A stretch of 32,000 nucleotides of DNA from Methylorubrum extorquens (GTDB lineage Bacteria > Pseudomonadota > Alphaproteobacteria > Rhizobiales > Beijerinckiaceae), in the NCBI GenBank assembly GCA_900234795.1, contig LT962688.1, positions 2,130,001 through 2,162,000 on the forward strand, given 5' to 3'. Positions 3,658 through 24,878 of this stretch are shown piece by piece (positions within the stretch are counted from its first letter, which is position 1; every line of letters begins with the position of its first letter). The notes below the pieces were generated by a model. That model searched no databases. It worked only from the letters and a program-made list of their open reading frames with translations, and had not been told where the DNA came from. A program made the translations under genes and the position numbers.

Positions 3658-3681
3658 GTCCCCTCCCTCGCGGGAGGGGAC
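3658..3681 (+). promoter_or_regulatory. Perfect 10-bp stem/4-nt loop hairpin just after the binding-protein gene; intercistronic attenuator or mRNA-stabilising element.
   Basis: gtcccctccc tcgc gggaggggac, 15 nt after the urtA stop. No T-tract follows. The next gene starts at 3753. Confidence 0.55.
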
Positions 3682-3752
3682 ACCCGCGATATGACGGGCG
3701 TGGCCCGACACTTGCTGCGCTCTCCCAGAAAATTCCGCCGGAGTCACAAGCC

Positions 3753-4679: not shown

Positions 4680-4692
4680 GGAGCGCGCCCCG

Positions 4693-5870: not shown

Positions 5871-5874
<4 letters not shown>
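4693..5874 (+). CDS. urtC: Urea/amide ABC transporter permease (UrtC-like, LivM family).
   Basis: 393 aa, multi-TM, LivM-like (..GILSLGQGVFFGLGGY..). GAGGAG lies upstream of the ATG. It follows urtB after 13 nt. Confidence 0.88.
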
Positions 5875-6674
<800 letters not shown>

Positions 6675-6687
6675 GGGCGAACGGATC

Positions 6688-7434: not shown

Positions 7435-7445
7435 GGATCTTCGCG

Positions 7446-8462: not shown

Positions 8463-8625
8463 ACCACCAGCGGGGCGCCCCGGCGACCCGCCCGAACCGA
8501 TCCGGTGCCGACCCGCGCCGGATGAACGAAGAACGACAACAACGATCCACGGGGGCGGCCGGACCAGCACCGGACACGCAACGGGGACGGCTGCCAAAAA
8601 TCCGGACAGTAAAGGAGTAAAGGAA

Positions 8626-9857: not shown

Positions 9858-9864
9858 ATCTCTT

Positions 9865-9893
9865 GGTTTGCCGCCCTCTCCGGGCGGCAAACC
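9865..9893 (+). promoter_or_regulatory. Perfect 12-bp stem/5-nt loop hairpin between fmdA and fmdB.
   Basis: ggtttgccgccc tctcc gggcggcaaacc begins 8 nt after the fmdA stop. No T-tract follows. fmdB starts at 9922. Confidence 0.55.
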
Positions 9894-9921
9894 GCACACA
9901 CTTTGCCTGAGAGCGTTTGCG

Positions 9922-10239
9922 ATGCCGGTCTACGATTACGCCTGCGAGAGCTGTGGTCCGTTCACGGTGCTGCGCCCGATGGCGCAGTTCAAGGACCCGC
10001 ATGACTGCCCGGATTGCGGCGGGGAATGCCAGCGCGCCTTCCTCACCGCCCCGCGGATCTCTGGCATGGATGCCGGCCTCAAGGCCGCCCACGCCACCAA
10101 CGAGCGCAGCCGCCACGAGCCGCGGCGCTCCGGTGCCCACGGGGCCGGCTGCGGCTGCTGCTCGCCGAAGAAGACGTCCGCCGCACCCGCGGCGGCCAAG
10201 AGCTTCCCGAACGCGCGGCCCTGGATGATCAGCCACTGA
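9922..10239 (+). CDS. fmdB: FmdB-family zinc-ribbon putative regulatory protein.
   Basis: MPVYDYACESCGPFTVLRPMAQFKDPHDCPDCGGECQRAF is the canonical FmdB CxxC..CxxC ribbon. The track ORF begins at 9868, but the family N-terminus is MPVYDY (ATG 9922). The gene sits right after fmdA, as in the Methylophilus fmd cluster. Confidence 0.85.
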   Translation: MPVYDYACESCGPFTVLRPMAQFKDPHDCPDCGGECQRAFLTAPRISGMDAGLKAAHATNERSRHEPRRSGAHGAGCGCCSPKKTSAAPAAAKSFPNARPWMISH

Positions 10240-10405
10240 TCGAACGGCCGTCTCGGCGGCGGGCGCCCGGTGTGCCCGTCGCTCAACATCCGGAAGGATG
10301 GATCGAACCGAAGAACAGCTCCGCGAGGGAGCCGCCGGCCGCGACACGACAAGCGGGACGAACCCTGTGGGCAGGCCGGCGCAGAGGACGGGTTGGGGAC
10401 TGACG

Positions 10406-11866
10406 ATGCTTGAGCGAATGACACAGACACGGGCCAGACGCCGCCGCGGCGTGAGAATCGGAACGGCCGGAGCCCTGCTGGCGGCAAGCCTGACCACGGC
10501 GACCGGCGTCTCCGCGCAGCAACCCTCGCCGGTGGGTCAGTTCAACGATCAGACCCAGCCGCGCACCGATCCGCGCATCGCCGAGAAACCCAGCGATCCC
10601 GTCCGCGTCGGCCCGCTGGCGCCCTGGGCCACCCACATGGCCGAGCGCGGGCTCACCTTCGACATCAACATCTACAACTTCTACCAAGCCAATCCCTCGG
10701 CCGGCCTGCGCACCGGAGAGCAGTCGAACTCGACCTATTTCGTCCTCTCCATGACCGCCGACATGCAGCGCATCGCCAACATCAGTGGCGGCACCATCAA
10801 GTTCACGCAGACTTTCTTCGGCAACGTCCGCAACCTCAACATGGCCGCCGATATCGGCGACACCACGGTCGGCTACCAGCCGCCGTTCAACCCCAACAAC
10901 AACCGCCTGTCGCTGCTCACCTACCAGCAGAAGTTGCTCGACGACCGCCTCGTCATCGAAGTCGGCCGCACCCACCCCGATCGCTACTACGGCCTGCCGC
11001 CGTGCAACTCGATCAATTCCTGCTTCCAGGACCTGTTCTACATCAACGCCGGCTTCACCTCGCCGCTCTACGCGGTCTGGGGCGCGAACGCCGCCTACCA
11101 GCTCTCGCCCACGAGCTACGTCCAGGCCGGCGCCTTCTCGGTGAACCCCGGCACCAACGCATTGTCGGGCTACGATTTCGGCTACGAGCGGCTCTCGGGC
11201 GCGCTGGTGATGACCGAGATCGGCACCAAGACCGACTACACCATGACCGCCTATCCCGGCCGCGCTTCGCTCACCGGCTTCTTCAACACGGCCGATCACG
11301 ACGACAACTTCAAGACAGTGTTCGGCACCTCGAAGGGCCTGAACCCCGGCGCCCCGGTGCTGCAGAAGTCGGGCACGTCCGGCATCGTGCTCACCGGCAC
11401 GCAGACGGTCTGGCGCGCCGATGGTGGCCTCGTCGCCAACCCGCACCCGACGGCGATCTCGCTCTATACCGGCACGGGCTATTCGTTCGATCCGACGGTG
11501 CCGATCCGCTTCAACTCGTTCGTCGGCGTACGCCTCGACGCGCCCGACCAGAGCCGGCCCAACGACAGCTACGGGCTGAAGATGAACTGGCAGCGTTTGT
11601 CGGAGAACTACACGCAGTTCCTGTCTGACGCGAACTTCATCTCGGGCGGCTCGGGCGCCCCGTATTCGCGCGACAAGTTCGTGTTCGAGGCCAACGCGCA
11701 CTTCGACGTCGGCGCGGGCGTGATCATCGAGCCGGTGGTTCAGTACGTGGTCAACCCGAACACGTTCTGGAACCCCTTCACCGCGCGGCGCGCCAAGGAC
11801 GGCTTCTACGCCGGCGCAACGCTGGTCGTCCCGCTCGGCACCCTGCTCGGCCTCGCTCCGGGCTAG
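10406..11866 (+). CDS. Outer-membrane porin, OprB (carbohydrate-selective porin)-like; positional counterpart of the amide/urea porin FmdC.
   Basis: Signal peptide MLERMTQTRARRRRGVRIGTAGALLAASLTTATGVSA/QQ from the ATG at 10406 (track ORF starts at 10298). The composition is beta-barrel-like, with alternating aromatic/Gly/Asn-rich strands, and ..ERGLTFDINIYNFYQAN..GGTIKFTQTFFG is OprB-like. Family assignment is from memory, not a search. Confidence 0.7.
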   Translation: MLERMTQTRARRRRGVRIGTAGALLAASLTTATGVSAQQPSPVGQFNDQTQPRTDPRIAEKPSDPVRVGPLAPWATHMAERGLTFDINIYNFYQANPSAGLRTGEQSNSTYFVLSMTADMQRIANISGGTIKFTQTFFGNVRNLNMAADIGDTTVGYQPPFNPNNNRLSLLTYQQKLLDDRLVIEVGRTHPDRYYGLPPCNSINSCFQDLFYINAGFTSPLYAVWGANAAYQLSPTSYVQAGAFSVNPGTNALSGYDFGYERLSGALVMTEIGTKTDYTMTAYPGRASLTGFFNTADHDDNFKTVFGTSKGLNPGAPVLQKSGTSGIVLTGTQTVWRADGGLVANPHPTAISLYTGTGYSFDPTVPIRFNSFVGVRLDAPDQSRPNDSYGLKMNWQRLSENYTQFLSDANFISGGSGAPYSRDKFVFEANAHFDVGAGVIIEPVVQYVVNPNTFWNPFTARRAKDGFYAGATLVVPLGTLLGLAPG

Positions 11867-11941
11867 CCCTTTTTCCGAGCCAAGAAAGGGGGGCTCGCGC
11901 GACGGGCCCCTCCCCTCAAACCAACCGGAGGAAACACCGCC

Positions 11942-12994
11942 ATGATGCACGGTGATATCTCGTCGAGTCAGGACAGCGTCGGCGTCGCCGTCGTGAACTA
12001 CAAGATGCCCCGGCTGCACACCAAGGCCGAGGTGCTGGAAAACGCCAAGAAGATCGGCGACATGATCATCGGGATGAAGGCCGGTCTGCCGGGCCTCGAT
12101 CTCGTGATCTTCCCCGAATACTCGACCCACGGCATCATGTACGACGCGGGCGAGATGTACGAGACTGCCTCCTCCATCCCCGGTGCGGAGACTGACATCT
12201 TCGCCGACGCGTGCCGCAAGGCCAAGGTCTGGGGTGTGTTCTCACTCACCGGCGAGCGCCACGAGGAGCATCCGCGCAAAGCCCCCTACAACACGCTCAT
12301 CCTGATGAACGACCAGGGCGAGATCGTGCAGAAGTACCGCAAGATCATGCCCTGGACCCCGATCGAGGGCTGGTATCCCGGAGACCGCACCTACGTCTCG
12401 GATGGCCCGAAGGGCCTCAAGATCAGCCTGATCATCTGCGACGACGGCAACTATCCCGAGATCTGGCGCGACTGCGCGATGCGCGGCGCCGAACTCATCA
12501 TCCGCTGCCAGGGCTACATGTATCCGGCCAAGGAACAGCAGGTTCTGATCTCGAAGGCGATGGCATTCGCCAACAATACCTACGTCGCGGTGGCCAACGC
12601 CGCCGGCTTCGACGGCGTCTACAGCTATTTCGGTCACTCGGCGATCATCGGCTTCGACGGCCGGACGCTGGGCGAGTGCGGCGAGGAGGAGATGGGCATC
12701 CAGTACGCCGCACTCTCGAAGTTCCTGATCCGCGATTTCCGCGCCCACGGCCAGTCGGAGAACCACCTCTTCAAGCTGCTGCACCGCGGCTACACCGGCA
12801 TGATCAACTCGAAGGAGAACCGGCACGGGATGTCGGAATGCCCCTACGACTTCTACCGTCGCTGGATCGAGGACCCCGACGGCACCCGCGACGCGGTGCG
12901 CGCCATCACCCGCTCCAGCGTCGGCACCGAGGAATGCCCGATCGAGGGCATCCCCTTCGTCGGCAAGGGCGAGGGCCCGCCCGACCCGCGCTGA
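11942..12994 (+). CDS. amiE: Aliphatic amidase (acylamide amidohydrolase, nitrilase superfamily).
   Basis: [109 protein letters not shown] is near-collinear with Pseudomonas aeruginosa AmiE as I remember it, including the catalytic Cys in [15 protein letters not shown] lies 10 nt upstream of the start. Confidence 0.92.
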
Positions 12995-13542: not shown

Positions 13543-14952
13543 TCACGGCTCTGTAAGCGGACGAAGATTATAGCCCGGCGGCTTCGTCCGTTCGATCGCC
13601 GCGGCCGTTCGTATGACGTCCGCCTCGCCGAGCGCGCGGCCCACGATCTGAAGCCCGACCGGCATTCCGTCCGAGGCAATTCCCGCGCAGACGGAGGCCG
13701 CGGGCTGGCCCGTGAGGTTGAAGGGGTAGGTGTAGAAGGCCCAGGAGACGAGACTGCGATCTTCCAGTCCCTCCGGGATGTTCCTGCCTGCTTCCAAGGA
13801 CGAGATCGGCAGTGTCGGTGACACGAGGACATCGTAGCCGGTGAAGAAGCTGACCATCCGGTCCCGCAGCGCGTACCGCGCGAAGACGGTCTCGTAGTAG
13901 GCGCGCATCTCCTGAGCGAGGGCGGCGTCGAGCACATCGGCGACGGCGGGGTCCAGGAGATCGCGGCGGCTTTCGAGAACGCCGCGCAGGCGGGTGCCGA
14001 TGCCGGCGTAGAACTCGGCTGTCCAGAGAGCGGCTGGATCGGACTCGAAGACGGTCTCGACCTCTTCCACGATCGCGCCCTGGTCGGCCAGCGTCATCGC
14101 CGCAGCACGGGCGATGGCGGCGACCTCCGGGTTGGGCCGCGCATAGCCGAGCGTCGCGCTCCAGGCGACCCGCAGGCCGGCGACGGAAGCCTTGACCGCG
14201 CCCAAAAGGTCCGGGACGGGCCCGGCCACCGCGAAGGGATCGCGCGGATCGTGGCCGGCGACCGCCATCGTCAGCAAGGCGGCGTCGGCGACGTCGCGAG
14301 CAAGCGCGCCGACATGGGCCAGCGTCGGTGTTGCCGAGGTCGGCCAGACCGGAACCCGCCCGAATTGCGCCTTGAGCCCGACGAGACCCGTCAGCGCTGC
14401 GGGAATGCGCAGGGAGCCGCCACCGTCGGTGCCGAGTGCGAAGGGCGTGATCCCGGCTGCCACCGAGGCGGCCGCGCCGGCGCTCGATCCGCCCGGTGTC
14501 TTCGCCAGATCCCAGGGATGGCGGGTGATGCCGGTGAGCGGCGAGTCGCCGACGGGCTTGGCTCCGAACTCGCTCGTGGTGGTCTTCCCGATGATGATGG
14601 CGCCGGCGGCACGCAGGCGCTCGACGGCGGGGGCATCGGCGGCGGCGACATTGCTCGCCATGGCCCGCGAGCCGGACGCGTAGGGCTGGCCGCCCACCGC
14701 GATCAGATCCTTCACCGAGACCGGCAGGCCGTGGAGCAGCCCGAGGGGCGAGCCGCACATCACAGCCTCCTCGGCCCGGCGCGCGGCGCTGCGGGCCTCC
14801 TCCGGCATCAGGTGGCAGAAGGCATTCAAGGAGGCTTGGCTCGCCTCGGCGCGCGCGAGGGCGTGCTCCGTCAGCTCGACCGGCGAAATCGCGCGCGCCG
14901 CGATCAGGCGGCGCAGCTCAAGCGCGGTCATGAAGTCGAAGTCGCTCGTCAT
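13543..14952 (-). CDS. Amidase-signature (AS) family amidase (GatA-like).
   Basis: MTSDFDFMTALELRRLIAARAISPVELTE..GLLHGLPVSVKDLI..GKTTTSEFG..PGGSSAGAAASVAAG..GTDGGGSLRIPAA shows the Lys/cis-Ser/Ser signature. The start is chosen at the ATG at 14952 (GGAG upstream); the track ORF extends to 15132 through an implausible Arg/Gly-rich leader. Confidence 0.88.
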   Translation of the reverse strand: MTSDFDFMTALELRRLIAARAISPVELTEHALARAEASQASLNAFCHLMPEEARSAARRAEEAVMCGSPLGLLHGLPVSVKDLIAVGGQPYASGSRAMASNVAAADAPAVERLRAAGAIIIGKTTTSEFGAKPVGDSPLTGITRHPWDLAKTPGGSSAGAAASVAAGITPFALGTDGGGSLRIPAALTGLVGLKAQFGRVPVWPTSATPTLAHVGALARDVADAALLTMAVAGHDPRDPFAVAGPVPDLLGAVKASVAGLRVAWSATLGYARPNPEVAAIARAAAMTLADQGAIVEEVETVFESDPAALWTAEFYAGIGTRLRGVLESRRDLLDPAVADVLDAALAQEMRAYYETVFARYALRDRMVSFFTGYDVLVSPTLPISSLEAGRNIPEGLEDRSLVSWAFYTYPFNLTGQPAASVCAGIASDGMPVGLQIVGRALGEADVIRTAAAIERTKPPGYNLRPLTEP

Positions 14953-15005
14953 CGCTCCACTCTCTGCAAGGGAGGCGCGGCGCCCGAGGGGGCGCCGCAA
15001 TGGCG

Positions 15006-15707
15006 TCAGTCGTTGACGAGGGCGAACGCGCGGACCGGCGAGCCGGAACCGCCCTTGAACTTCAGCGGCACGCCGAAGAACTGCACCTCGCCCTTGCCCA
15101 GAAGCTCCTCCAGGTTCACCAGCCATTCCCAATGGCTGATGCCCAGTTCACGGCAGAGGCGGTGCTGAGCGAAGATGTTGTCGCTCGGCTTATCGGTGGA
15201 GGGCCCCTCGACACCGTGCATCTTCGAGCCGCGCTCATGCAGCCACTGGGTGGCCTCCACGGTCAGCAGCGGGTTCTTCCACACCGAGTCGAGGCTCGGA
15301 TAGTTGCGCGCGTGGAAGCCGGTGCAGAGCAGGACGATGTGGCCGTCGACTTTGACGCCGCTCTTGGCTTGCGCCTCCTCCATGTCGGCGACCGTGATGT
15401 CGCCCAGGTCGGGGATGTGACGCAGGTCGAAGCAGACCGCCTTGCCCATGAACAGCTCCAGCGGCATCTCGTCGACGGGCTGGCCGTTCGGATCGACATG
15501 CCGGAAGGCGTCCACATGGGTGCCGACGTGGTCGAGCATCGCGATGAAGTTCGTCTGGAAGGTCATCGCATCGCCCGGCACGCCGAGATTGAGGCCGGCC
15601 GAACTCTCGTGACTGAGATGCGTGGTGATCACCGGCCGCTGGAAGAGCTTGTGGGCCGGCATGTTGTCCTCGATCAGGAGGCTCAAATCGACGACGCGCT
15701 GGGGCAT
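15006..15707 (-). CDS. Cyclase-family protein (kynurenine formamidase KynB-like metal-dependent amidohydrolase).
   Basis: 233 aa with HVGTHVDAFRH, the HxGTHxDxxxH motif of the putative-cyclase/arylformamidase family. AAAGGA RBS. Confidence 0.75.
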   Translation of the reverse strand: MPQRVVDLSLLIEDNMPAHKLFQRPVITTHLSHESSAGLNLGVPGDAMTFQTNFIAMLDHVGTHVDAFRHVDPNGQPVDEMPLELFMGKAVCFDLRHIPDLGDITVADMEEAQAKSGVKVDGHIVLLCTGFHARNYPSLDSVWKNPLLTVEATQWLHERGSKMHGVEGPSTDKPSDNIFAQHRLCRELGISHWEWLVNLEELLGKGEVQFFGVPLKFKGGSGSPVRAFALVND

Positions 15708-15738
15708 GGCGGGTCCTTTTCGGGCGTGATGGATCGTT

Positions 15739-15760
15739 CACGGCACCGTCCGGTGCCGTG
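15739..15760 (-). promoter_or_regulatory. Perfect 9-bp stem/4-nt loop hairpin between the livF-like and cyclase genes.
   Basis: cacggcacc gtcc ggtgccgtg in the 81-nt intercistronic gap (15708-15788). No U-tract on the transcribed strand. Confidence 0.5.
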
Positions 15761-15788
15761 CCGTTTCGGGTTCGGCGGGATGCCGCTC

Positions 15789-16526
15789 TCAGGCGGCTTT
15801 CTTCTTGCCGAGAAAGGTCTCCATGACCTCCGGGTCGCGGGCGATGAGCCCGCTCGGGCCGTCCCGCACCGTGCGCCCCTGCGCCACCACGTAGGCGTGG
15901 TCGGCGATGGCGAGCGCGTAGGATGCGAGCTGCTCGACGAGAAGAATGGTGAGGCCTTGGCCGTTGAGATCGCGCAAGACGCCAATGAGTTGCTCAACGA
16001 CGCGGGGCGCGAGGCCAAGCGAGAGTTCGTCGATCACGAGGAGGTCGGGTTCGGCCATCAGACCACGGGCGATGGCGAGCATCTGCTGCTCGCCGCCCGA
16101 CATGCTGCCGGCCGGCTGGCGCAGCCGCTCGCGCAAGCGCGGGAACAGCGCGAGCGCCCGCTCCAGCGTCCGTTTCGCCTGCGCGGTCTTGAGGCCGCCA
16201 TGGGTGTAGGCACCCAGTATCAGATTGTCCTCGACGGTTTGGTCGGGGAAGATCAGGCGTCCCTCGGGCACCATCGCGAGACCGCGGGCGACCTTGGCAT
16301 GGGCGGGCAGCCGGGTGACCTCCTCGCCCTTGAACAGGACGCGGCCGCCGCTCGGTCGTACGAGGCCGGTGATCCCGCGCATCAGCGAGGTCTTGCCGGC
16401 ACCGTTATTGCCGATCACGGCGACCAGCTGACCGCGTTGCACGGTCAGGTTCGCACCGCGGAGCGCGGTTGCCGCGCCGTAGCGGACTTCGAGGTTCTCG
16501 ACCGAGAGAAGCGGAGTATCGGTCAT
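15789..16526 (-). CDS. Branched-chain-amino-acid-type ABC transporter ATP-binding protein (LivF-like).
   Basis: MTDTPLLSVENLEVRYGAATALRGANLTVQRGQLVAVIGNNGAGKTSL..MSGGEQQMLAIARGL..LLVIDELSLGLAP (245 aa). This is the C-terminal part of track ORF 15789..17924, whose upstream part is out-of-frame shadow. Its ATG overlaps the stop of the preceding gene (TGATG). Confidence 0.88.
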   Translation of the reverse strand: MTDTPLLSVENLEVRYGAATALRGANLTVQRGQLVAVIGNNGAGKTSLMRGITGLVRPSGGRVLFKGEEVTRLPAHAKVARGLAMVPEGRLIFPDQTVEDNLILGAYTHGGLKTAQAKRTLERALALFPRLRERLRQPAGSMSGGEQQMLAIARGLMAEPDLLVIDELSLGLAPRVVEQLIGVLRDLNGQGLTILLVEQLASYALAIADHAYVVAQGRTVRDGPSGLIARDPEVMETFLGKKKAA

Positions 16527-18307
16527 CAGGCGGCCTCCTCGTTGAGGATGGCGGACGGGCCGCCGAAATAGGCCTCGATCACCCGCGGATCGGCTTGCAC
16601 CGTCTCCGGACGGTCGCTCGCGATGACCTGCCCGTAATCGAGCACCGTCACGGTATCGGCAACCGCCATGATCAGGTCGACGTGATGCTCGATGAGCAGC
16701 ACCGAGACACCGAGTCCCGCGATCTTCCGGATCATGGCCTCCAGTTCGTCGATCTCCTGCGTGGTGAGCCCGGCGGCGGGCTCGTCGAGAAGCAGAAGAC
16801 GCGGACGCGTGGCGAGGGCCCGGGCAATCTCCAGCCGGCGCTGATGGCCGAAGGGCAGGAAGCGGGCCTGCTCGTTGGCCACCGCGCTGAGCCCGACGAA
16901 ATCGAGCAGGCCGATTGCGGCGGCGCGGCAGGCGGCCTCCTCGCGGCGGAAGCGGGGCGTGCGCAGGATCGCCCCGGGCAGGCCGTAGCCGTGATGGGCG
17001 AAGCCGCCCACCATGACATTCTCCAGAACCGTCATCTGTCCGAACAGCTCGGTGTTCTGGAAGGTGCGGGCAAGACCGAGCCGCGCAATGCCGTGAACCT
17101 TGATGCCGGCGAGATCGGTCCCGTCGAGGTGCACGCCACCCTCGCTCGGGCGGTAGAACCCCGAGATCGTGTTCACGAAGGTCGACTTGCCGGCTCCGTT
17201 CGGGCCGATCAGAGCGTGGATCTCGCCCGGGGCGACCCGAACGCTCGCAGCGCTCAGCGCCGTGAGCCCGCCGAAGCGAACGGTGAGGCTGTGGGTCTCC
17301 AGGCCGGCAGGCTTGCGACCCGCGAGAAGCTCGGCGGCGGGCATGCCTTGACCCGGCTCGACCCCACGCGGGCCGGGGCGCAGACGGGCGTAGAGTTGGC
17401 CCAGCGTACCTAGGATGCCGCCGGGCAGGCCGAACATCACCGCCAGCAGCAGGGCGCCGTAGGCGAATTTCTGCCACTCGGCAAAGCGCTGCAGCACTTC
17501 CGGCAGATAGGTCAGGATGAAGGCGCCGACGACCGGCCCGAAGGTTGAGGCCGCTCCTCCCAGGATCACCATCAGCAGGAAGCGGACGGAATCCGAGAAG
17601 GTGAAAATGTCGGGCGAGATATAGGCGTTGAGGAAGGCGTAGAAGCTGCCCGCGATCCCTGCCGTCATGGCCGCGACCGCGAAGGCGAGCGTGCGGATCC
17701 CCGTCGCGCCGATGCCGAGGCTGCGCGCGGCCGTCTCGCTCTGGGCGACAGCCAGCATCGCGCGGCCGTAGCCCGAGTGCTTCAGGTTGTGCGTCGCCAG
17801 GGTCGCGAGAAAAAGGGTGATGGCGAGCACGGCGTAGAAGGCGTAGCCGGAGAGCGGATATCCGAAGAGGTTCGGGCCGGGGATGCCGCTGAGTCCCGTC
17901 GTGCCGCCGGTGAGGCTCTGCCACTCGATGGCAACGTTCTCGACAATGAGGCCGAAGGCGATCGTCACCACCGCGAGATAGACGCCCCGCACCCGCACGC
18001 TCGGATAGGCCAGCGCCGCGCCGAAAAGGCCGGCCACCACCGCCGCGCCGATGCTTGCGAGAACGAGGTCGAGGTTGAACCGGATCGCCAGGATCGCGCC
18101 GGTATAGGCGCCAAGCGCGAACAGTCCGGCTTGGCCGAGAGAGACGAGGCCGGTGAGTCCGACGAGGACATTCAGGCCGACCGCGATCACGCCGTAGATC
18201 AGGAACAGCATGAACAAGCGCAGTTCGTACTCGTTGCCGGAGGTGAGCGGCACGACAACGAGGATGGCTGCGAGCAGCGCGAAGCCGAGGGTGTAGAGGG
18301 CCTTCAT
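16526..18307 (-). CDS. Fused ABC transporter permease (LivM-like) and ATP-binding (LivG-like) protein.
   Basis: 593 aa. The N-terminal ~330 aa are multi-TM (..GLVSLGQAGLFALGAY..). The C-terminal part carries GPNGAGKSTF, FGHQRRLEIARAL and LLLLDEPAAGL. Confidence 0.88.
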   Translation of the reverse strand: MKALYTLGFALLAAILVVVPLTSGNEYELRLFMLFLIYGVIAVGLNVLVGLTGLVSLGQAGLFALGAYTGAILAIRFNLDLVLASIGAAVVAGLFGAALAYPSVRVRGVYLAVVTIAFGLIVENVAIEWQSLTGGTTGLSGIPGPNLFGYPLSGYAFYAVLAITLFLATLATHNLKHSGYGRAMLAVAQSETAARSLGIGATGIRTLAFAVAAMTAGIAGSFYAFLNAYISPDIFTFSDSVRFLLMVILGGAASTFGPVVGAFILTYLPEVLQRFAEWQKFAYGALLLAVMFGLPGGILGTLGQLYARLRPGPRGVEPGQGMPAAELLAGRKPAGLETHSLTVRFGGLTALSAASVRVAPGEIHALIGPNGAGKSTFVNTISGFYRPSEGGVHLDGTDLAGIKVHGIARLGLARTFQNTELFGQMTVLENVMVGGFAHHGYGLPGAILRTPRFRREEAACRAAAIGLLDFVGLSAVANEQARFLPFGHQRRLEIARALATRPRLLLLDEPAAGLTTQEIDELEAMIRKIAGLGVSVLLIEHHVDLIMAVADTVTVLDYGQVIASDRPETVQADPRVIEAYFGGPSAILNEEAA

Positions 18308-19179
18308 ACCTTGAAGATCTCCCGGCGGCCGAACAGACCCTGAGGGAAGGCGACGAGGACGAGGATCATCGCACTGAAGCCGACGATCTCCCGCGCCGCG
18401 GTCGAAACGTAGCCCTCGACGAACTTCTCCATGACCCCGAAGGCGAGGCCGGCCAGGACGACGCCGGGGCCACTGGTGATTCCGCCGATGATGGCGACCG
18501 CGAAGCCCTTGAGCCCGAGGAGGACGCCCATGCTGGCGGAAGCCTGGATCACGGGGGCGACGAGCACGCCTGCCCCTGCGCCGAACAGTGCCGCGAGTCC
18601 GAAGGAGAACATCACGATCCGGTCGACGTTGATGCCCATCAGGGCAGCCGCTTGGCGGTTATGGGCGACTGCCTGCATCGCTCTCCCGACGAGCGTATGC
18701 CGTTGCATCGCGTGGAGACCGGCCATCGCAAGCAGTGCGACGGCTGGGATGACGAGTTCCTGCGGATAGACGCCCGCTCCAAGGATCGAGATCGCTCCTG
18801 CAACGCCGGGCGAGGGAAGCGGGCGCGAGAAGCCGCCGAACTGCATCGTGGCAAGGGATTCAGCCATGATGCCGACTGCGATCGTGGTCAGCATCCAGCC
18901 GATCGAGGCGTTGGTGCCGATGAAAGGCCGCACCGCGAAACGCTCCAGCACAACGCCGAACAAGGCCCCGGCCAGGATTGCGAGGAGGCAGGCCAGCGGC
19001 AGCGGCAAGCCGGCATCGATGCCCATCACGGCGAGGACTGCGCCGATCATCAGCGTGTCGCCGTGGGCGAAGTTCACGGCCTTGGCGGCCGACCACATGA
19101 TGTGGAAGCCGAGTGCGACGAGGGCGTAGATGCCCCCGATTGCGAGGCCTGAGAGCGTATATTGCAGGGCGGTCGTCAT
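18304..19179 (-). CDS. ABC transporter permease (LivH-like).
   Basis: 291 aa multi-TM, ..AVNFAHGDTLMIGAV.. The stop overlaps the next start (ATGA). Confidence 0.88.
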   Translation of the reverse strand: MTTALQYTLSGLAIGGIYALVALGFHIMWSAAKAVNFAHGDTLMIGAVLAVMGIDAGLPLPLACLLAILAGALFGVVLERFAVRPFIGTNASIGWMLTTIAVGIMAESLATMQFGGFSRPLPSPGVAGAISILGAGVYPQELVIPAVALLAMAGLHAMQRHTLVGRAMQAVAHNRQAAALMGINVDRIVMFSFGLAALFGAGAGVLVAPVIQASASMGVLLGLKGFAVAIIGGITSGPGVVLAGLAFGVMEKFVEGYVSTAAREIVGFSAMILVLVAFPQGLFGRREIFKV

Positions 19180-19305
19180 GGCTGCCGCGAGAGTTCCCTG
19201 TGTGAAGCGGACAGGCGTTCAGCGGAGTTGGGGCGACCCGGCGATCGGGATCCGAACGAGCCGCCCCGGCCCCACCGTTCGAAGACGGAGGGGACGCTTC
19301 TGCCG

Positions 19306-20499
19306 TCAGTTCGTTCTGCCGTAGGGGGTCTGCGCAATCGGTAGGAGCTTGCCGTCGGACCAGACTGTCAGCTTGTATTCGCTTGGCAGAATTGCGTCCT
19401 GGCGTTCCGGGTCAGAGGAATCGAAGGCCGGATCGTATTTCGCGACCAAGCCCTCGTATCTGACTTGATAAAGCGCCTCGCGGACCTTCTTCCAATCGTA
19501 GGCACCGGCCTTCTCGATGGCCTGGGCCACGATGTGAACGGCGTCATAGGTGTTGGCGATGCCGGAGCCCATCTTGATCTGCGACGGATCCTTCAGGCCG
19601 TACTTCGTCTGGATCTTCTGCCAGAGCGCTTGGCCTTTATGGTCGAGGTCGCCCATGAAGCTGTAGGTCTGCACGACCTGGACGCCATTGGCGAGCGGGC
19701 CGGCAAGTTCGCCGAGATTGCCGGCGATGCCCCAGGCGCCGATGATGGTGGGCTTGTAGCCGACCTTGTCCATCGAGCGGACGAGCTGGTTGCCCTCGCG
19801 GTCGAGGGCCCAGAACAGGGCAACGTCGGCACCCGAATCCCGCGCGCGGATCGCCTGCGCGGTCATGTCCTGATCGTTCCAGTTGAAGGTCTCCGTGGCG
19901 ACCAGTTCCTTTCCGGCCTTTGCGATCGCCGCCTTCACATCCGGCACGGCACCGTTGCCCCACCCTGTATTCTCATAGAAGAATGCGATCTTTCCGGTCT
20001 TCGAGACCTTCGCGGCCTGCTCGACGAGGAAGCGGGCGACCCATTTGTCCTTGGCCGATACCCGGAACATGTAGTTCGGATTACGGCCATTCTCGATGGC
20101 CTGTGTGTTGGCCGCGAGCACGCCGACGAACGGGATGCCAATGGCATGGACCGGCTCAACCTGAGCCACCGAAACGGTGGAGTGGTAACCGCCGAGGATG
20201 ATGACACACTTATCGGCCAGCGCGACGCGCCGGGTGTTGTCGACGCCGCGCGGCGGCGTTCCGGCGTCGTCATACTGGACGAAGCGCAGAGGCTTGCCGA
20301 GGACACCGCCCTTGGCATTGATCTCCTCAAGGGCGATCTCGGCGCCCATTCTGATGGCTTGGCCGGTGAAGGCCGCCGGGCCGGTGATGGCAGCAGAGTT
20401 GCCGATGCAGGGCTCCTGCTGGGCAAGCGCCGAGCCAGGAATCGTGAAAGCCAGTGGCGCGACCAGAAATAGTCGGCAAAAATACTTTGGCGCAACCAT
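19306..20499 (-). CDS. Periplasmic substrate-binding protein, Leu/Ile/Val-binding (PBP type I) family; ligand unknown.
   Basis: Signal peptide MVAPKYFCRLFLVAPLAFTIPGSALA/QQ from the ATG at 20499 (GGAG 8 nt upstream); the track start at 20550 is a TTG. ..GNSAAITGPAAFTGQAIRMGAEIALEEINAKGGVLGKPLRFVQYDD.. is LivJ/K-like. Confidence 0.85.
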   Translation of the reverse strand: MVAPKYFCRLFLVAPLAFTIPGSALAQQEPCIGNSAAITGPAAFTGQAIRMGAEIALEEINAKGGVLGKPLRFVQYDDAGTPPRGVDNTRRVALADKCVIILGGYHSTVSVAQVEPVHAIGIPFVGVLAANTQAIENGRNPNYMFRVSAKDKWVARFLVEQAAKVSKTGKIAFFYENTGWGNGAVPDVKAAIAKAGKELVATETFNWNDQDMTAQAIRARDSGADVALFWALDREGNQLVRSMDKVGYKPTIIGAWGIAGNLGELAGPLANGVQVVQTYSFMGDLDHKGQALWQKIQTKYGLKDPSQIKMGSGIANTYDAVHIVAQAIEKAGAYDWKKVREALYQVRYEGLVAKYDPAFDSSDPERQDAILPSEYKLTVWSDGKLLPIAQTPYGRTN

Positions 20500-20624
20500 G
20501 CGTTGGGCTCCGATTCCCTGATGATGCTCGGGTTCAGCCGCGATGTTCAAGCGATGACCGTCAGGCTACGCAACGAATACATCAGGCATCAAAGACCAAT
20601 TTCCGATGTGAGCCATTGGAATTA

Positions 20625-20645
20625 CCTATGAGCTTCGTTCATAGG
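20625..20645. promoter_or_regulatory. Candidate LysR-type binding site (dyad CCTATGA-N7-TCATAGG containing T-N11-A) in the divergent promoter region.
   Basis: cctatga gcttcgt tcatagg. The inner TGAGCTTCGTTCA fits T-N11-A. It lies in the only AT-rich stretch (20551-20801), between the binding-protein gene and the LysR gene. Confidence 0.4.
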
Positions 20646-20801
20646 CGAGGCTTGGCGAGGCGCTTCCCAGCTAACTCCATGTTTTTGCATTAGAAATCTA
20701 TATTTGATGCACATAGTTTGCGCAGATTGCTCGGCGTTAGAGCAGTTTGACATGGGCGTGGAGTTCCGCGCCTTTTCACAAATTCCCCGGATAGGATTGC
20801 C

Positions 20802-21764
20802 ATGGATCTTCGTCAGCTTCGGTACTTCACGCAAATCGCGGAGAGCGGGAACGTCTCTCGGGCCGCTGAGGTGCTGCGGATCGCCCAGCCCTCGCTCAGC
20901 CAACAGATGCGCAACTTGGAGGACGAACTCGGTGTCGAACTGCTGTTCCGGCACGCCCGCGGGGTCACGCCCACGGAGCTCGGGCTGAAGTTCTACGAAC
21001 ACGCGCGGCGTATTCTGCAGGAGGTCGAGCGGGCCAAGGAGGTCATGCGCTCGCAGGCAACGAGCCCGAGCGGACGGATCTCGGTCGGATTGCCGACTTC
21101 AGCCTGCCGTGGTCTTTCTCTGCCACTCCACCGGGCCATGGCGGAGGCGCTTCCCAACATCAGTCTCCATATCGTCGAGGCGATGAGCGGTACGTTGGAC
21201 GAGTGGATCCAATCCGGGCGCTTGGACGTCGCGCTGCTCTACGACCACAAAGCGTTCGAACACGTGGCTTGGACCGAGATGATGGTCGAGGACCTGATGT
21301 TCATCGTTCCCACCTCTCATCCGCTGGCCGCGCGGCGCGAGATCGCGTTCGGCCAGGTCTTTCAGCAGGCGCTTCCAGTCGTGCTTCCCGGTCGCCCGAA
21401 CGTGCTGCGTGCCGTGATCGAGCAGCTCGCGGCACGCCACGACATCACACCGGCCGCAACGGATTGCGAGAGCCTGCCGGCGATCGCGGAGCTCGTGCGC
21501 GCTCAGGCCTTCGCGGCCATCATGCCGCATTTCGCCTTGGCTGCGGAGATCGAGCGCGGCGAGATGGTGGCCATTCCCATCGTCGATCCGACACCATCCT
21601 GGCGACTGTCCGTTGTGGTTTCTCAGCGAACGCTGAATACCCGTGGCAGCGAGGCCGTTGCTGAAGTACTGGCGGGCGTGATCGGAGATCTCGTCCAGCG
21701 CTCCGTCTGGCGCGCTCGCCTCAAGCCGACGGAGCGCCCTGCCCCTGTGCGCGCTCGTGCCTGA
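20802..21764 (+). CDS. LysR-family transcriptional regulator.
   Basis: MDLRQLRYFTQIAESGNVSRAAEVLRIAQPSLSQQMRNLEDELGVELLFRHARGVTPTELG is a typical LysR wHTH. 320 aa. Divergent from the ABC/amidase operon. Confidence 0.9.
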   Translation: MDLRQLRYFTQIAESGNVSRAAEVLRIAQPSLSQQMRNLEDELGVELLFRHARGVTPTELGLKFYEHARRILQEVERAKEVMRSQATSPSGRISVGLPTSACRGLSLPLHRAMAEALPNISLHIVEAMSGTLDEWIQSGRLDVALLYDHKAFEHVAWTEMMVEDLMFIVPTSHPLAARREIAFGQVFQQALPVVLPGRPNVLRAVIEQLAARHDITPAATDCESLPAIAELVRAQAFAAIMPHFALAAEIERGEMVAIPIVDPTPSWRLSVVVSQRTLNTRGSEAVAEVLAGVIGDLVQRSVWRARLKPTERPAPVRARA

Positions 21765-21984: not shown

Positions 21985-22330
21985 TCACGCGACGAATGTC
22001 TGGGTCGAGAGCCGACCGTCGGTCGGGCTGTCCACCCCAAGGACGCCGCACGGCTGACCCTCGCCCTGAATCAGTAGGTTGATGGCCCGCCCGATCCCGT
22101 GCTCGCGGAGGACGTCCGGCGTGCGGATGCGGGTTTCGTCCTCAAGATGGTTGGAGATGACCGGCTCGCCGGTTTGGAACGCGGACCCGGTCGGGCTCTC
22201 CCTATCCGCCCCGGTCCGGGCGTGCCCGACGGCGCCGTGTTTCCAGCCGACCCCGGCCCGCACAATGAACTGTCCCTCGTCGGGGAGGTACGATGCAGAC
22301 AACGCCGCGTGACGCGGGTGGCATGCGCCG
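21985..22330 (-). pseudogene. Remnant of a GAF-domain sensor (HWE/HisKA_2 kinase-type) gene; only the C-terminal part of the GAF domain remains.
   Basis: The minus frame reads ..YLPDEGQFIVRAGVGWKHGAVGHARTGADRESPTGSAFQTGEPVISNHLEDETRIRTPDVLREHGIGRAINLLIQGEGQPCGVLGVDSP.., the GAF pattern I associate with rhizobial HWE kinases. I could not find a kinase H-box in any frame downstream (21765-21985). Upstream, the frame runs antisense into the receiver gene. The 5' limit is approximate. Confidence 0.45.
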
Positions 22331-22383
22331 CTCCGTCGCGAACCTGCGTGCAACCCGGTAAGCCGACCGGCGTTCTCCCCCTC

Positions 22384-22764
22384 ATGTCCCGCTCCCACGC
22401 TGTTTCCCCGTCTCTGGTCCTGCTTGTCGAGGACGAAAACCTCGTACGGTTGATGGCGAGCGACATGCTGGAGGACGCCGGGTTCACCGTCATCGAAGCA
22501 GCGTGCGCTGACGAGGCTTGGGAGATCCTGGAGAGCCGTAGCGACATCGGCGTGCTGTTCACCGATATCGAGATGCCGGGATCGATGAACGGCTTTGCGC
22601 TTGCTGCTCAGGTTGCCGAGCGTTGGCCGCACATCCGCTTGGTGATCACCTCGGGGCGGTGTCGCCCGGCATCGCGCGATGTGCCGGACCACGGCATGTT
22701 CGTGCCCAAGCCCTATCTGGCAGAGCAGCTGCTCAGTGCCTTTGACCGAGCCAAGCCGGTTTAG
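22384..22764 (+). CDS. Single-domain response regulator (CheY-like receiver).
   Basis: MSRSHAVSPSLVLLVEDENLVRLMASDMLEDAGFTVIEAACADEAWEIL..IGVLFTDIEMPGSMNGFALA..LVITSG..KPY (126 aa). The track ORF 22099..22764 has a non-coding-looking leader. Confidence 0.85.
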   Translation: MSRSHAVSPSLVLLVEDENLVRLMASDMLEDAGFTVIEAACADEAWEILESRSDIGVLFTDIEMPGSMNGFALAAQVAERWPHIRLVITSGRCRPASRDVPDHGMFVPKPYLAEQLLSAFDRAKPV

Positions 22765-22844
22765 CGGTTTCCGCTGATCGTTCAGAGCAGCGCCACATAA
22801 CGCTCCTCCCCGCCCTCTTACTCACGCAGACTTCGGCGCCAGCG

Positions 22845-24878
22845 TCAGCCTCGCTTGGGCCGGAACGGCACAATCTCCGCCTCTGGCCGGAGGCTCGTCA
22901 CAAGTGCGCGTGCGAGATCGACCTGTTCGAACGGCTTGCCGAGGCGCACGATGCCCGTGAGCCGATCCTCCGGCAACTCAGCATAGCCACTTGCCAGGAT
23001 CACCGGCAGATCCGCGCGTTCGGCCTTGAGAGCGTCAATCAGCTGCACGCCGGTCATGCCTGGCATCATCTGATCCGTGATTACCAGATCAATGCTCTCG
23101 GCGCGTCGTAGAACGCGGAGCGCTTGTTCACCCGAAGTTGCCTCGAGCACCTCATGGCCAAGGTCTTCCAACATGGCTCCGGTGTTCATCAGCACCAGCG
23201 GGTCGTCATCCACCACCAGCACCGTGAGGGCATGCAGGGACGGTAACTCCGGCGCCGGCGTATGGTCTTCTTTGCGAAGGAGATCGCCCTCGGTGGCAGG
23301 CAGCCAGAGTTCTGCGGTGGTACCGCTGCCCAGGTTGCTCTTGAGCACCAGACGGCCGCCGGACTGTTCGGCGAAGCCGTGGATCATGGAGAGGCCCAGC
23401 CCCGTGCCCTTACCGACGCCCTTGGTGGTGAAGAAGGGTTCTGTTGCCTTCGCCAGTGTCTCCGCGTCCATCCCCGTGCCCGTGTCCGTCACAGACAGGC
23501 AAACGTAGTGTCCTGGCGCCAAGCCCGCGATCTCGTCCGCGCCGACCCGCTCCTCCCGGGCGGCAATCGTGATCGTCCCACTTTCCGGCATCGCGTCGCG
23601 CGCGTTCACAGTCAGATTGAGCAACGCCAGCTCAAGCTGACTTGCGTCTGCAAAGGCCAGCGGCAGTTGCAGCGGGAACTGCGTGTTGACCAGGATGGTG
23701 GAGCTGATCGAGAGCTGCAGCAGTTCGGCCATGCCGCGCACGAGGTCCGGCACGTTGATGGGGCCGGTCTCCAGCTCCTGTCGGCGTGCGAAGGCAAGCA
23801 TGCGCTTGGTCAGTGCCGCTCCCCGTTCGGCAGCCTGGATCGAGTTCTCGATCAACTGCCGCAGCTTCGGGTCGTTCGGCAGCCGCTTGCGGGCGAGGCT
23901 CAGGTTCCCGAGCACGACCGCCAGTAGATTGTTGAAGTCGTGCGCCACGCCGCCGGTGAGCTGGCCGATTGCCTCCATCTTCTGGGACTGGATGAAGCGT
24001 GCGCGGGTCGCTTCCAGCTCCTGCTGAACGTTGCGCCGCTCGGTGATGTCCCGGGTGATCTTCGCGAACCCGACCAGTTCACCGTGATCGCCGCGGATTG
24101 CGTCGATGACGACGTGCGCCCAGAACCGTGTGCCGTCCTTGCGCACGCGCCATCCCTCCGCCTCGAAGCGCCCCTCGTCCGCAGCCGTCCGCAGGGCACG
24201 GGTCGGCAGATCGGTCGCCCGGTCCTCATCGGTGTAGAACCGGGAGAAGTGCTCCCCGATGATCTCTGCGTCGGTGTAGCCCTTGAAGCGTTGCGCGCCG
24301 CGGTTCCAGCTCGAAACCTTGCCCTGCGGGTCGAGCATGTAGATCGCGTAGTCCTGAACGCCCTGTACGAGCAGGCGGAAGCGCTGTTCGCTCTGCCGCA
24401 AAGCCTCCTGCGTTGCCTTCCGCTCGCTCAGGTCACGCGTGATTTTGGCGTAGCCGACAAGCTGGCCGTCCTCGCTTCGGATCGGGTCGATCAGCACGTG
24501 CGCCCACATCAAGGAACCGTCCTTGCGAACGCGCCAGCCCTCCTGTTCGAAGCGGCCCTCGGTGGCGGCAATATGCAGGGCACGGGTCGGCAGATCAGTC
24601 GCGCGGTCCTCAGGGGTGTAGAACCGGGAGAAGTGTTCCCCGATGATCTCGTCGGTTGTATAGCCTTTGAAGCGTTGGGCGCCCGGGTTCCAGCTCGCAA
24701 TATACCCTCGTGGGTCGAGCATATAGATTGCGTAATCGACGATCGCCTCAACGAGCAGACGGTAGCGGTCATCTCGATCTGCGGCCGCTTCGATGGCCTT
24801 GGTTGCCCTTACGTCTTGGTGGTGCAGGGCGCCGAGGCGCATTTGTTCATCTGACATGCGGCTGAACCTACCACGCAT
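22845..24878 (-). CDS. Hybrid sensor histidine kinase: PAS-PAS-HisKA-HATPase-receiver.
   Basis: Two PAS units (..DYAIYMLDP.G...SWN.GAQRFKGYT..EIIGEHFSRFYT.EDRATDLPTRAL..). H-box GGVAHDFNNLL (His at 23942-23940). N/G boxes NLTVNARDAM..DTGTGMD..GKGTGLGLSMI. C-terminal REC VLVVDDDPLVL..DLVITDQMMPGMTG. An alternative start is the ATG at 24857 (MSDEQM). Confidence 0.9.
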   Translation of the reverse strand: MRGRFSRMSDEQMRLGALHHQDVRATKAIEAAADRDDRYRLLVEAIVDYAIYMLDPRGYIASWNPGAQRFKGYTTDEIIGEHFSRFYTPEDRATDLPTRALHIAATEGRFEQEGWRVRKDGSLMWAHVLIDPIRSEDGQLVGYAKITRDLSERKATQEALRQSEQRFRLLVQGVQDYAIYMLDPQGKVSSWNRGAQRFKGYTDAEIIGEHFSRFYTDEDRATDLPTRALRTAADEGRFEAEGWRVRKDGTRFWAHVVIDAIRGDHGELVGFAKITRDITERRNVQQELEATRARFIQSQKMEAIGQLTGGVAHDFNNLLAVVLGNLSLARKRLPNDPKLRQLIENSIQAAERGAALTKRMLAFARRQELETGPINVPDLVRGMAELLQLSISSTILVNTQFPLQLPLAFADASQLELALLNLTVNARDAMPESGTITIAAREERVGADEIAGLAPGHYVCLSVTDTGTGMDAETLAKATEPFFTTKGVGKGTGLGLSMIHGFAEQSGGRLVLKSNLGSGTTAELWLPATEGDLLRKEDHTPAPELPSLHALTVLVVDDDPLVLMNTGAMLEDLGHEVLEATSGEQALRVLRRAESIDLVITDQMMPGMTGVQLIDALKAERADLPVILASGYAELPEDRLTGIVRLGKPFEQVDLARALVTSLRPEAEIVPFRPKRG

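Follow-up and report, generated by a model that had tools for sequence, protein, structure and literature searches.

A stretch of 32,000 nucleotides (nt) from Methylorubrum extorquens (contig LT962688.1, positions 2,130,001 to 2,162,000; hereafter, the window) contains, at positions 13543-21764, a compact set of genes that joins an importer of the Liv type to two hydrolases. The locus was analyzed by listing its open reading frames (ORFs) and by searching the proteins of the window against the Pfam and NCBIfam profiles. Six genes on the minus strand (13543-20499) encode, in order of their transcription, a periplasmic binding protein, a LivH-type permease, a fused LivM-LivG protein, a LivF/UrtE-type ATPase, a cyclase-family protein, and an amidase-signature (AS) amidase; the gene for a LysR-type regulator (20802-21764, plus strand) diverges from them (Table 1). 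The window is 99.83% identical to a chromosome of the Methylobacterium/Methylorubrum group (CP021054.1). The gene content, the tight packing, the gene overlaps, and the divergent regulator had been described in an initial annotation made from the sequence alone, and the ORFs and profile matches bear all of this out. Its interpretation holds in part: the two hydrolases do seem to act together, but the labeling of the cyclase as KynB-like and of the substrate as a formyl or acyl compound is not supported by the evidence given below. Every component comes from a known family and none scores above the cut-off for any family whose function has been assigned (function-specific models are matched above their cut-offs only in other genomes); the whole is an uncharacterized catabolic operon of known families.

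Layout and products of the operon

livH and livMG overlap by 4 nt (ATGA, 18304-18307), and the livMG stop and the livF start have a single base in common (16526, within TGATG); the other gaps in the block are 126, 81, and 53 nt. Scans of the block revealed no terminator-like site on the minus strand and no σ70 consensus inside it, and no σ54 site was found in either the block or the divergent control region. The whole window yielded no riboswitch, no other Rfam family, and no tRNA. The six genes are presumably cotranscribed. A GC-rich hairpin, CACGGCACC-GGAC-GGTGCCGTG, lies in the 81 nt that separate livF from the cyclase gene; it is a structure which has a 9-bp stem, a 4-nt loop, and no U-tract, and which was not called by the minus-strand terminator scan. 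It is possibly an mRNA-processing or stability element, and it could then give differing mRNA levels for the transporter and the enzymes.

The regulator has the hallmarks of the LysR type: an HTH_1 and a LysR_substrate domain, a divergent operon and, in the control region, a perfect dyad of the T-N11-A type (CCTATGA-N7-TCATAGG), to which binding is predicted. Its best NCBIfam match is NAC, at 184.8 bits relative to an equivalog cut-off of 309, and it is NAC/CynR-like but scores below both cut-offs and is an equivalog of neither protein. An ortholog of 52-92% identity diverges from the cluster in 44 of the 80 related loci introduced below, and the ortholog also adjoins cyclase-amidase pairs with no Liv transporter beside them. 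Many orthologous loci from several families carry this dyad, or a related one of the ATAGG/CCTAT form, at 160-225 nt upstream of the start of lysR; among them are loci where LysR faces the cyclase gene directly and Liv genes are absent. The dyad is a candidate LysR operator, and LysR presumably controls the operon.

Table 1. Features of the locus (positions in the window), with two gene insertions from related loci, L094 and L095 (positions in those loci)
Feature	Position	Strand	Evidence or remark
AS amidase, 469 aa	13543-14952	-	PF01425, 333 bits
Cyclase-family protein, 233 aa	15006-15707	-	PF04199, 110 bits
GC-rich hairpin in the livF-cyclase spacer	15739-15760	-	read from the sequence
LivF/UrtE-type ATPase, 245 aa	15789-16526	-	ABC_tran, 103 bits
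Fused LivM-LivG, 593 aa	16526-18307	-	BPD_transp_2 + ABC_tran + BCA_ABC_TP_C
LivH-type permease, 291 aa	18304-19179	-	BPD_transp_2, 120 bits
Periplasmic binding protein, 397 aa	19306-20499	-	Peripla_BP_6, 179 bits; signal peptide ending ALA|QQ
Divergent control region, 302 nt	20500-20801	.	contains the dyad at 20625-20645
LysR-type regulator, 320 aa	20802-21764	+	HTH_1, 77 bits; LysR_substrate, 113 bits
CobW/COG0523 insertion	L094 15776-16903		Paraburkholderia caribensis megaplasmid
CobW/COG0523 insertion	L095 15722-16909		Cupriavidus oxalaticus megaplasmid

The importer has all the parts of a HAAT (Liv-type) system, namely a Peripla_BP_6 protein, two BPD_transp_2 domains, and two ATPases, one of which carries BCA_ABC_TP_C. 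In its five functional parts and their families it resembles the Escherichia coli LivJ/K-HMGF, UrtABCDE urea, and FmdDEF/AmiC amide systems, but here LivM and LivG form one polypeptide. A LivM-type permease (residues ~1-310; 164 bits on the LivM model) is joined in this fusion to a LivG-type ATPase (residues ~336-583; 263 bits on the LivG model), whose Walker A motif, GPNGAGKS, is at 368. LivM-LivG fusions are an established annotation category, and the RefSeq name of the ortholog is 'branched-chain amino acid ABC transporter ATP-binding protein/permease'. The LivF-like ATPase scores 204 bits on the UrtE model and 198 bits on the LivF model, below the cut-off in each case.

Despite the family to which it belongs, the binding protein differs from LivJ and LivK where they contact the ligand. 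It reaches no Liv or Urt cut-off (99.9 bits on the LivJ-type subfamily model relative to 477), and its nearest solved structures match with an E value of 1e-26 only. In an alignment with E. coli LivJ/LivK, Y18 is replaced by T, L77 by Y, C78 by H, T102 by A, Y150 by W, Y202 by L, and E226 by W. Residues S79, T102, Y202, and E226 of LivJ/LivK make the backbone contacts, holding the α-amino and α-carboxylate groups of the ligand, and only S79 is kept; the changes at 102, 202, and 226 are present in all five of the orthologs that were aligned. Judged from these residues, the pocket appears to be rich in aromatic side chains and not to be an amino acid pocket of the LivJ type. The replaced contacts also speak against the binding of branched-chain amino acids alone, an outcome that the initial annotation had considered.

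The cyclase-family protein is a member of PF04199 (110.2 bits; gathering threshold, 23.1). Alignment with structure 4cz1 and a motif search indicate that all six metal ligands are present: H60, H64, D66, and H70 (HVGTHVDAFRH), together with H182 and E194. These correspond to H50, H54, D56, H60, H161, and E173 of Bacillus anthracis KynB (4cz1), a binuclear zinc enzyme, and an alignment of 53 diverse homologs shows them to be nearly invariant. 'KynB-like formamidase', the name given to this protein at first, is nevertheless too specific. The KynB equivalog model TIGR03035 is matched at 58.5 bits and has a cut-off of 223.05, neither tryptophan 2,3-dioxygenase nor kynureninase families occur among the ORFs of the window or at the annotated related loci, and the fold is at least as close to that of isatin hydrolase. 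The last point comes from an AlphaFold2 (AF2) model. When only sequences of >80% identity were aligned, the predicted local distance difference test (pLDDT) value was 50 and the model was discarded; addition of representatives of 50% clusters raised it to 97. The 34 best Foldseek matches of this second model in the PDB are all PF04199 structures (query TM-score, TMq, of 0.68-0.85), including isatin hydrolase B (TMq 0.84-0.85, 22% identity), isatin hydrolase A (0.81-0.83, 26-27%), a Ruegeria cyclase-phosphotriesterase (0.80-0.81, 22-24%), and KynB (0.79-0.80, 22-24%). Thus, the modeled protein seems at least as close to isatin hydrolase as to KynB, and the precedent within the family is as much that of a cyclic amide hydrolase as that of a formamidase. 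PDB 8F9X, a close match in sequence, is an organophosphate-degrading 'cyclase-phosphotriesterase' and was set aside as uninformative about the substrate here.

The comparison with isatin hydrolase has its own limits. The characterized proteins (IH-A/IH-B of Labrenzia aggregata and Ralstonia solanacearum; 5nna, 5nmp, 4m8d) are metal-dependent hydrolases of a cyclic amide bond, have the HxGTHxDxxxH metal motif in common with the window protein, and resemble its model with a root-mean-square deviation of 2.3-3.0 Å. However, this resemblance is structural only, at an identity of 22-27%. The window protein is ~25-30 residues shorter and retains an extra His/Glu pair, which in KynB binds the second metal, and isatin hydrolases are not known to have a genomic context of this kind or to be paired with an AS amidase. 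KynB itself (TIGR03035; 4co9, 4cz1, 4cog), whose six zinc ligands do align, differs in the low identity and score and in context, since the gene in the window belongs to a transporter-amidase operon and has no kynA or kynU beside it.

The AS amidase (PF01425, 332.8 bits) contains the Ser-cisSer-Lys triad, K81 (VKD), S156 (GGSSAG), and S180 (GTDGGGSLR), so that both hydrolases appear to have intact active sites. Its nearest NCBIfam model, PRK06169, has no function assigned and is narrowly missed (489.6 bits; cut-off, 506). The allophanate hydrolase models (171.6-189.4 bits; cut-offs, 487-511) and the AtzE models (209.8-220 bits; cut-offs, 426-461) are not reached, and the protein is also far from the GatA and indoleacetamide hydrolase models. 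Its relatives in the PDB, with E values of 1e-44 to 1e-53, are GatA, aryl acylamidase, NylA, and AtzE. NylA and an AS-family γ-lactamase open cyclic amides. These precedents make the amidase a possible ring opener, as the isatin hydrolase precedent does for the metal enzyme.

Conservation and genomic context of the cyclase-amidase pair

A scan of one genome per species gave 80 related loci, onto which the proteins of the window were mapped by tblastn. The family annotation of these loci is partial, some neighboring ORFs having no family assignment, and cyclase relatives at 61% and 50% identity lie on short contigs that are of no use for comparing context. The full eight-part synteny (LysR, binding protein, LivH, LivM, LivG, LivF, cyclase, and amidase) recurs in 44 of the 80 genomes, each from a different species, and thus the arrangement is far beyond chance and represents one conserved unit. 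LivM and LivG are in frame in every one of these 44 loci. The hosts found by the scan are rich in methylotrophs and include Methylobacterium, Methylorubrum, Xanthobacter, Ancylobacter, Bradyrhizobium, Afipia, Methylopila, Aquabacter, and Terrihabitans. The block is also present, beyond the alphaproteobacteria, in the gammaproteobacterium Halotalea and on a megaplasmid of the betaproteobacterium Cupriavidus oxalaticus.

Conservation is not uniform across the block. Outside Methylobacterium, mean identity to the window protein is 87.5% for the cyclase, 79% for LivH, 78% and 77% for the LivM and LivG parts, 77% for the binding protein, 74.5% for LivF, 73% for the amidase, and 71% for LysR. The cyclase is thus the best conserved of these proteins, with 85-92% identity across orders, and this small metal enzyme is under unusually strong constraint.

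The two hydrolase genes also stay together where the rest of the block is lost. An orthologous amidase gene lies directly after the cyclase gene in ~71 of the 80 loci; besides the 44 loci with the full block, ~25 retain the pair and have no Liv genes. Contig ends and gene decay aside, the orthologous amidase is missing from only six of the 80, three of which have a paralogous AS amidase within 10 kb. This constancy agrees with the earlier proposal of two hydrolases in series, which indeed appear to work together. The transporter that accompanies the pair may be a Liv-type ABC system (44 loci), a PotD-type ABC system, a DctP-type TRAP system, an MFS protein, or an SBP_bac_8 ABC system, or there may be none. 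Because the pair is retained with Liv genes, with four other types of importer, or with no transporter, the cyclase and the AS amidase constitute the invariant functional core and the importer an exchangeable front end.

A search of genome context for co-occurring catabolic genes, as the initial annotation had recommended, proved informative: creatininase, deaminases, CodBA, and HyuAB are found beside the pair in other lineages. In Arboricoccus pini, a LysR gene is followed by an operon of cyclase and amidase and then, after 40 nt, of a PotD-type ABC transporter, a TRZ/ATZ amidohydrolase (508 aa), and a creatininase, which scores 357 bits on the equivalog model TIGR04448 (cut-off, 235). The same module of PotD-type transporter, TRZ/ATZ amidohydrolase, and creatininase follows a complete Liv-cyclase-amidase block in five Ancylobacter/Xanthobacteraceae genomes and the bare pair, with no Liv genes, at four other loci, two of them in Ancylobacter species. 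On a Bradyrhizobium plasmid, a LysR gene precedes PotD-type ABC, TRZ/ATZ, Liv, cyclase, and amidase genes, all in a single direction. In Halotalea, codB and codA come after the amidase gene with spacers of 47 and 31 nt, and both products score above their cut-offs. Cytosine deaminase also acts as creatinine deaminase in several bacteria. (For this overlap between the two deaminases, see also PMC8864220.) A distinct ortholog group of CodA-like amidohydrolases lies beside the cluster in 12 loci, often with a short AS amidase of the PRK08310 type.

Hydantoin-type enzymes are a second recurrent theme. HyuA and HyuB, an ATP-dependent lactamase/hydantoinase, are encoded directly upstream of the cyclase gene in L048, L073, L077, and L078, and the model nearest to them is caprolactamase, far below its cut-off. 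Loci of this kind that seemed to have no amidase were considered as evidence that the cyclase is the decarbamoylase, but this argument was dropped, since a paralogous AS amidase lies upstream in L073 and L077. An ortholog group of carbamoylase-like CN-hydrolases adjoins the pair in ~13 loci; in Aquisalimonas, the same CN-hydrolase ortholog occurs with HyuB, an amidase of the M20 hydantoinase/carbamoylase family, a PuuE-like deacetylase, CobW, a PotD-type ABC transporter, and a TRZ/ATZ protein. In betaproteobacteria, the gene for a CobW/COG0523 GTPase metallochaperone is inserted between the cyclase and amidase genes (Table 1), and a COG0523 metallochaperone beside the cyclase fits a metal-dependent enzyme. 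CobW genes are likewise found near the pair in L064, L069, and L081, in addition to the Aquisalimonas hydantoinase cluster.

Three further observations were made at these loci. A PotD-type ABC transporter together with a 500-510-aa TRZ/ATZ amidohydrolase, often with a true creatininase, forms a recurrent and apparently undescribed module (L089 16306-18622; L098 10001-12296; L096; L097). It is present in Arboricoccus, Ancylobacter, Aurantimonas, Pseudomonas saudimassiliensis, and Aquisalimonas, sometimes without the cyclase-amidase pair, and is a candidate unit for creatinine or creatine uptake and deamination. On plasmid p186_1 of Bradyrhizobium sp. 186 (L104 8279-9762), the TRZ/ATZ gene between the PotD-type and the Liv-type genes is split over two frames and absent from the gene table of the record; it is thus probably a pseudogene. 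Finally, an Indioceanicola profundi plasmid (L093 9049-14483) carries a TRAP-cyclase-amidase cluster with a transposase between it and a complete methylamine dehydrogenase (mau) cluster, a proximity that may be a coincidence or a hint at a methylated-amine product.

Proposed substrate and route

Taken as a whole, these results are best explained by a LysR-controlled nitrogen-scavenging module, to which we would assign a probability of roughly 0.4. The HAAT-type importer (binding protein, LivH, LivM-LivG, and LivF) would take up a small nitrogen compound other than an amino acid, and two cytoplasmic hydrolases, a binuclear-metal enzyme with the isatin hydrolase/KynB fold and a Ser-cisSer-Lys amidase, would cut two C-N bonds in succession and free ammonia. 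The NAC/CynR-like regulator and the adjoining genes for urea, formamide, and acetamide utilization (see below) count in favor of nitrogen scavenging. The parts of this explanation are not equally firm. That the operon performs a two-step hydrolysis to gain nitrogen from something other than an amino acid is probable, and the balance tips slightly toward a cyclic ureide, a cyclic amide, or an N-heterocycle product as its substrate. The identification of that substrate as 1-methylhydantoin is tentative, although this is the leading single candidate.

The occurrence of creatininase, amidine deaminases, CodBA, and HyuAB beside the pair points to the catabolism of an N-heterocycle of the creatinine or hydantoin type, and the simplest reading of the linked clusters is that they represent variations on one pathway, the substrate of which is an amino-substituted N-heterocycle. 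Creatinine leads among the candidates because creatininase and CodB/CodA are the sole substrate-specific equivalogs among the linked genes. Elsewhere, the full route would run from creatine to creatinine (creatininase), to 1-methylhydantoin (deamination), to N-carbamoylsarcosine, and to sarcosine; the share of the pair would be 1-methylhydantoin to N-carbamoylsarcosine to sarcosine plus CO2 and NH3, with no expenditure of ATP. The pair would then be an unrecognized ATP-independent route from 1-methylhydantoin to sarcosine fed by a dedicated hydantoin importer of the HAAT type, a possibility that we regard as rather doubtful in so specific a form. 1-Methylhydantoin is excreted by other bacteria after creatinine deamination. 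In the organism of the window, which has only the importer and the pair and no adjoining deaminase or creatininase, the imported compound would be the hydantoin itself. ATP-independent N-methylhydantoinase activity was reported in 1992, with no gene assigned (PMC4417704), and growth on creatinine, used as a methylated amine, has been reported for methylotrophic Aminobacter strains (PMC9699525), which fits the methylotroph-rich host range of the block.

This chemistry, ring opening followed by decarbamoylation, is that of the known creatinine route, which consists of creatinine deaminase, an N-methylhydantoinase of the HyuAB type (EC 3.5.2.14), and N-carbamoylsarcosine amidase (EC 3.5.1.59). 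In other genomes, the pair is linked to creatininase, to deaminases of the CodA and TRZ/ATZ types, and to HyuAB. However, the enzymes of the pair would be ATP-free and are unrelated to HyuAB and to the isochorismatase-type N-carbamoylsarcosine amidase, and their assignment to these steps comes from context alone. Full-text literature searches returned no paper on this system or on the cyclase-amidase gene pair and, in agreement with the initial annotation, no characterized pathway of this composition.

Several points weigh against a creatinine or hydantoin substrate. None of the families of the known route from creatinine to sarcosine (HyuA/HyuB, the isochorismatase-type N-carbamoylsarcosine amidase, creatinine deaminase/creatininase) is present in the window, and creatininase, deaminase, HyuAB, and sarcosine oxidase are absent from the window and from every Methylobacterium locus; the link to creatinine is made for this organism by transfer only. 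At L048, L078, and L073/L077, HyuAB, cyclase, and AS amidase together amount to one enzyme too many for a two-step route. The Indioceanicola pair is served by a DctP-type TRAP system, and TRAPs usually carry carboxylates, to which 1-methylhydantoin does not belong. Many neighborhoods of the pair are general 'C-N hydrolase islands', so that adjacency may reflect co-regulation by nitrogen status and not a single pathway. The extended clusters, with TRZ/ATZ and CodA-like proteins and two AS amidases, mirror the enzyme classes of s-triazine and cyanuric acid breakdown equally well. The literature searches turned up no paper or experiment that ties either the cyclase or the amidase to a substrate. 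We infer the substrate and the order of the steps from context, and either of the two enzymes could be the one that opens the ring and acts first.

The last of the resemblances just mentioned leads to an alternative that we consider unlikely but the best of the others: the substrate would be another N-heterocycle or ureide, such as an s-triazine product (ammelide, cyanuric acid, or biuret), allantoin, a barbiturate, or a 5-substituted hydantoin, the ring would be opened by the cyclase, as a non-homologous amidohydrolase, and the AS amidase would act as a ureide amidase like AtzE, AtzF, or ureidomalonase. Such a scheme follows the logic of the Atz branch (AtzD, AtzE, and AtzF) and of barbiturase/ureidomalonase, in which a ring-opening amidohydrolase precedes a ureide amidase of the AS family. 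The extended clusters of other genomes hold every class of Atz enzyme (TRZ/ATZ, CodA/AtzC-like deaminases, and two AS amidases, for one of which AtzE ranks second among the matching families), PuuE-like deacetylases and amidases of the M20 hydantoinase/carbamoylase family are nearby, and AtzE is among the PDB relatives of the window's amidase. Yet no protein with the AtzD/barbiturase fold is present, the AtzE and allophanate hydrolase scores are below half of the cut-offs, the allantoinase and PuuE models are likewise far from reached, and substrate-specific equivalogs in the linked operons are limited to creatininase and CodB/CodA.

The substrate suggested by the initial annotation, an imported N-formyl or N-acyl compound resembling an amino acid, now seems improbable. 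In this scheme a KynB-like deformylation, of an N-formyl amino acid amide or an N-formylmaleamate-like molecule, would be followed by deamidation by the AS amidase. The catabolism of nicotinate and of picolinate is known to employ a deformylase and then an amidase. The retention of all six KynB metal ligands, the position of KynB among the closest solved relatives, and the DctP-type TRAP partner in Indioceanicola, which would suit an anionic substrate, are all compatible with it. Deformylation before deamidation thus stays chemically possible, but nothing specific supports it: TIGR03035 gives 58 bits relative to 223, ~100 loci contain neither a ring-cleavage dioxygenase nor a kynurenine gene, the binding protein lacks the contacts for an amino acid backbone, and the partners of the pair are creatininase, amidine deaminases, CodBA, and HyuAB, with no enzyme that generates a formamide.

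A cyclic imide is an equally poor prospect. The metal hydrolase would be an imidase that converts succinimide, maleimide, or glutarimide to the half-amide, and the AS amidase a half-amidase that yields a dicarboxylate and NH3. Such an imidase/half-amidase route has reportedly been described biochemically in Blastobacter sp. A17p-4, and the half-amidase of Soong et al. (2000) is said to match the ~49-kDa AS amidase in size. The route needs exactly two successive hydrolyses; the host range (Hyphomicrobiales), the fold match to isatin hydrolase, itself a cyclic amide hydrolase, and a TRAP partner of the C4-dicarboxylate type, which would suit succinamate or maleamate, agree with it. It leaves unexplained, however, the repeated linkage to creatininase, to deaminases of the TRZ/ATZ and CodA types, and to CodB, and the subunit of the Blastobacter imidase, compared by description and not by sequence, is reportedly larger than 26 kDa. 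Least probable is the absence of any common pathway, with an ordinary amino acid or amide importer and two independent general amidases in a nitrogen-regulated island: the operon is surrounded in the window by an island of amide and urea genes that are unrelated, and miscellaneous C-N hydrolases abound at many related loci, but the adjacency of cyclase and amidase survives at least six transporter/regulator contexts in three proteobacterial classes, the pair is accompanied by the same LysR ortholog and dyad whether Liv genes are present or absent, and the pocket of the binding protein is not LivJ-like.

If the nitrogen-scavenging module does act on 1-methylhydantoin, it would reveal a new catalytic function, hydantoin/ureide hydrolysis, for the small cyclase/KynB/isatin hydrolase family and would supply ATP-free, non-homologous replacements for two enzymes of creatinine catabolism that are relevant to creatinine assays in the clinic and to the hydantoinase-carbamoylase process in industry. 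It would provide the gene for the ATP-independent N-methylhydantoin amidohydrolase activity of 1992 and a third enzymatic solution for recovering the nitrogen and carbon of creatinine, with a wide distribution among the methylotrophs of soil and leaves; these plant and soil organisms would be harvesting nitrogen and a methyl group from an abundant product of animal excretion. The range of ligands of HAAT binding proteins would also be wider. Whatever its substrate, the module is compact and strongly conserved, and its obvious inducer, regulator, and promoter make it easy to deorphanize. The locus is more specific than it first seemed, in that its core is the enzyme pair and its pocket is apparently not of the amino acid type, and its setting is that of N-heterocycles, creatinine, and hydantoin rather than of formyl or acyl amino acids.

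Neighboring genes in the window

The operon adjoins an amide island (2390-12994, plus strand) that contains genes for the utilization of urea, formamide, and acetamide. It encodes a UrtA-type binding protein (TIGR03407, 537 bits), two permeases, two ATPases, a MetX-like α/β hydrolase (PRK07581, 573 bits), a formamidase, an FmdB-like zinc-ribbon protein, an OprB-family porin, and the aliphatic amidase AmiE (PRK13286, 720 bits), whose gene is convergent with the amidase gene of the operon. The island fits nitrogen scavenging and nothing more specific. Its formamidase gene, fmdA (8626-9857, plus strand), is split over three frames by two indels and is intact (409 aa) in CP021054.1; either the strain has a pseudogene here or the assembly is in error. 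In a leaf isolate (GCA_001423385.1), the region of the OprB porin (~14272-14831 of L002, corresponding to 10753-11425 of the window) is rearranged or partly deleted, and no porin is called there.

At the left end of the window, an ORF of 711 aa with no Pfam match (82-2217, plus strand) lies in a stretch of 70% G+C. Past lysR are a GAF-domain ORF, which was tested for recurrence with the cluster and is absent from it in other genera, an ORF for a response-regulator receiver, and one for a 677-aa PAS-PAS histidine kinase with a receiver domain (together at 21985-24878 on the minus strand and 22099-22764 on the plus strand).

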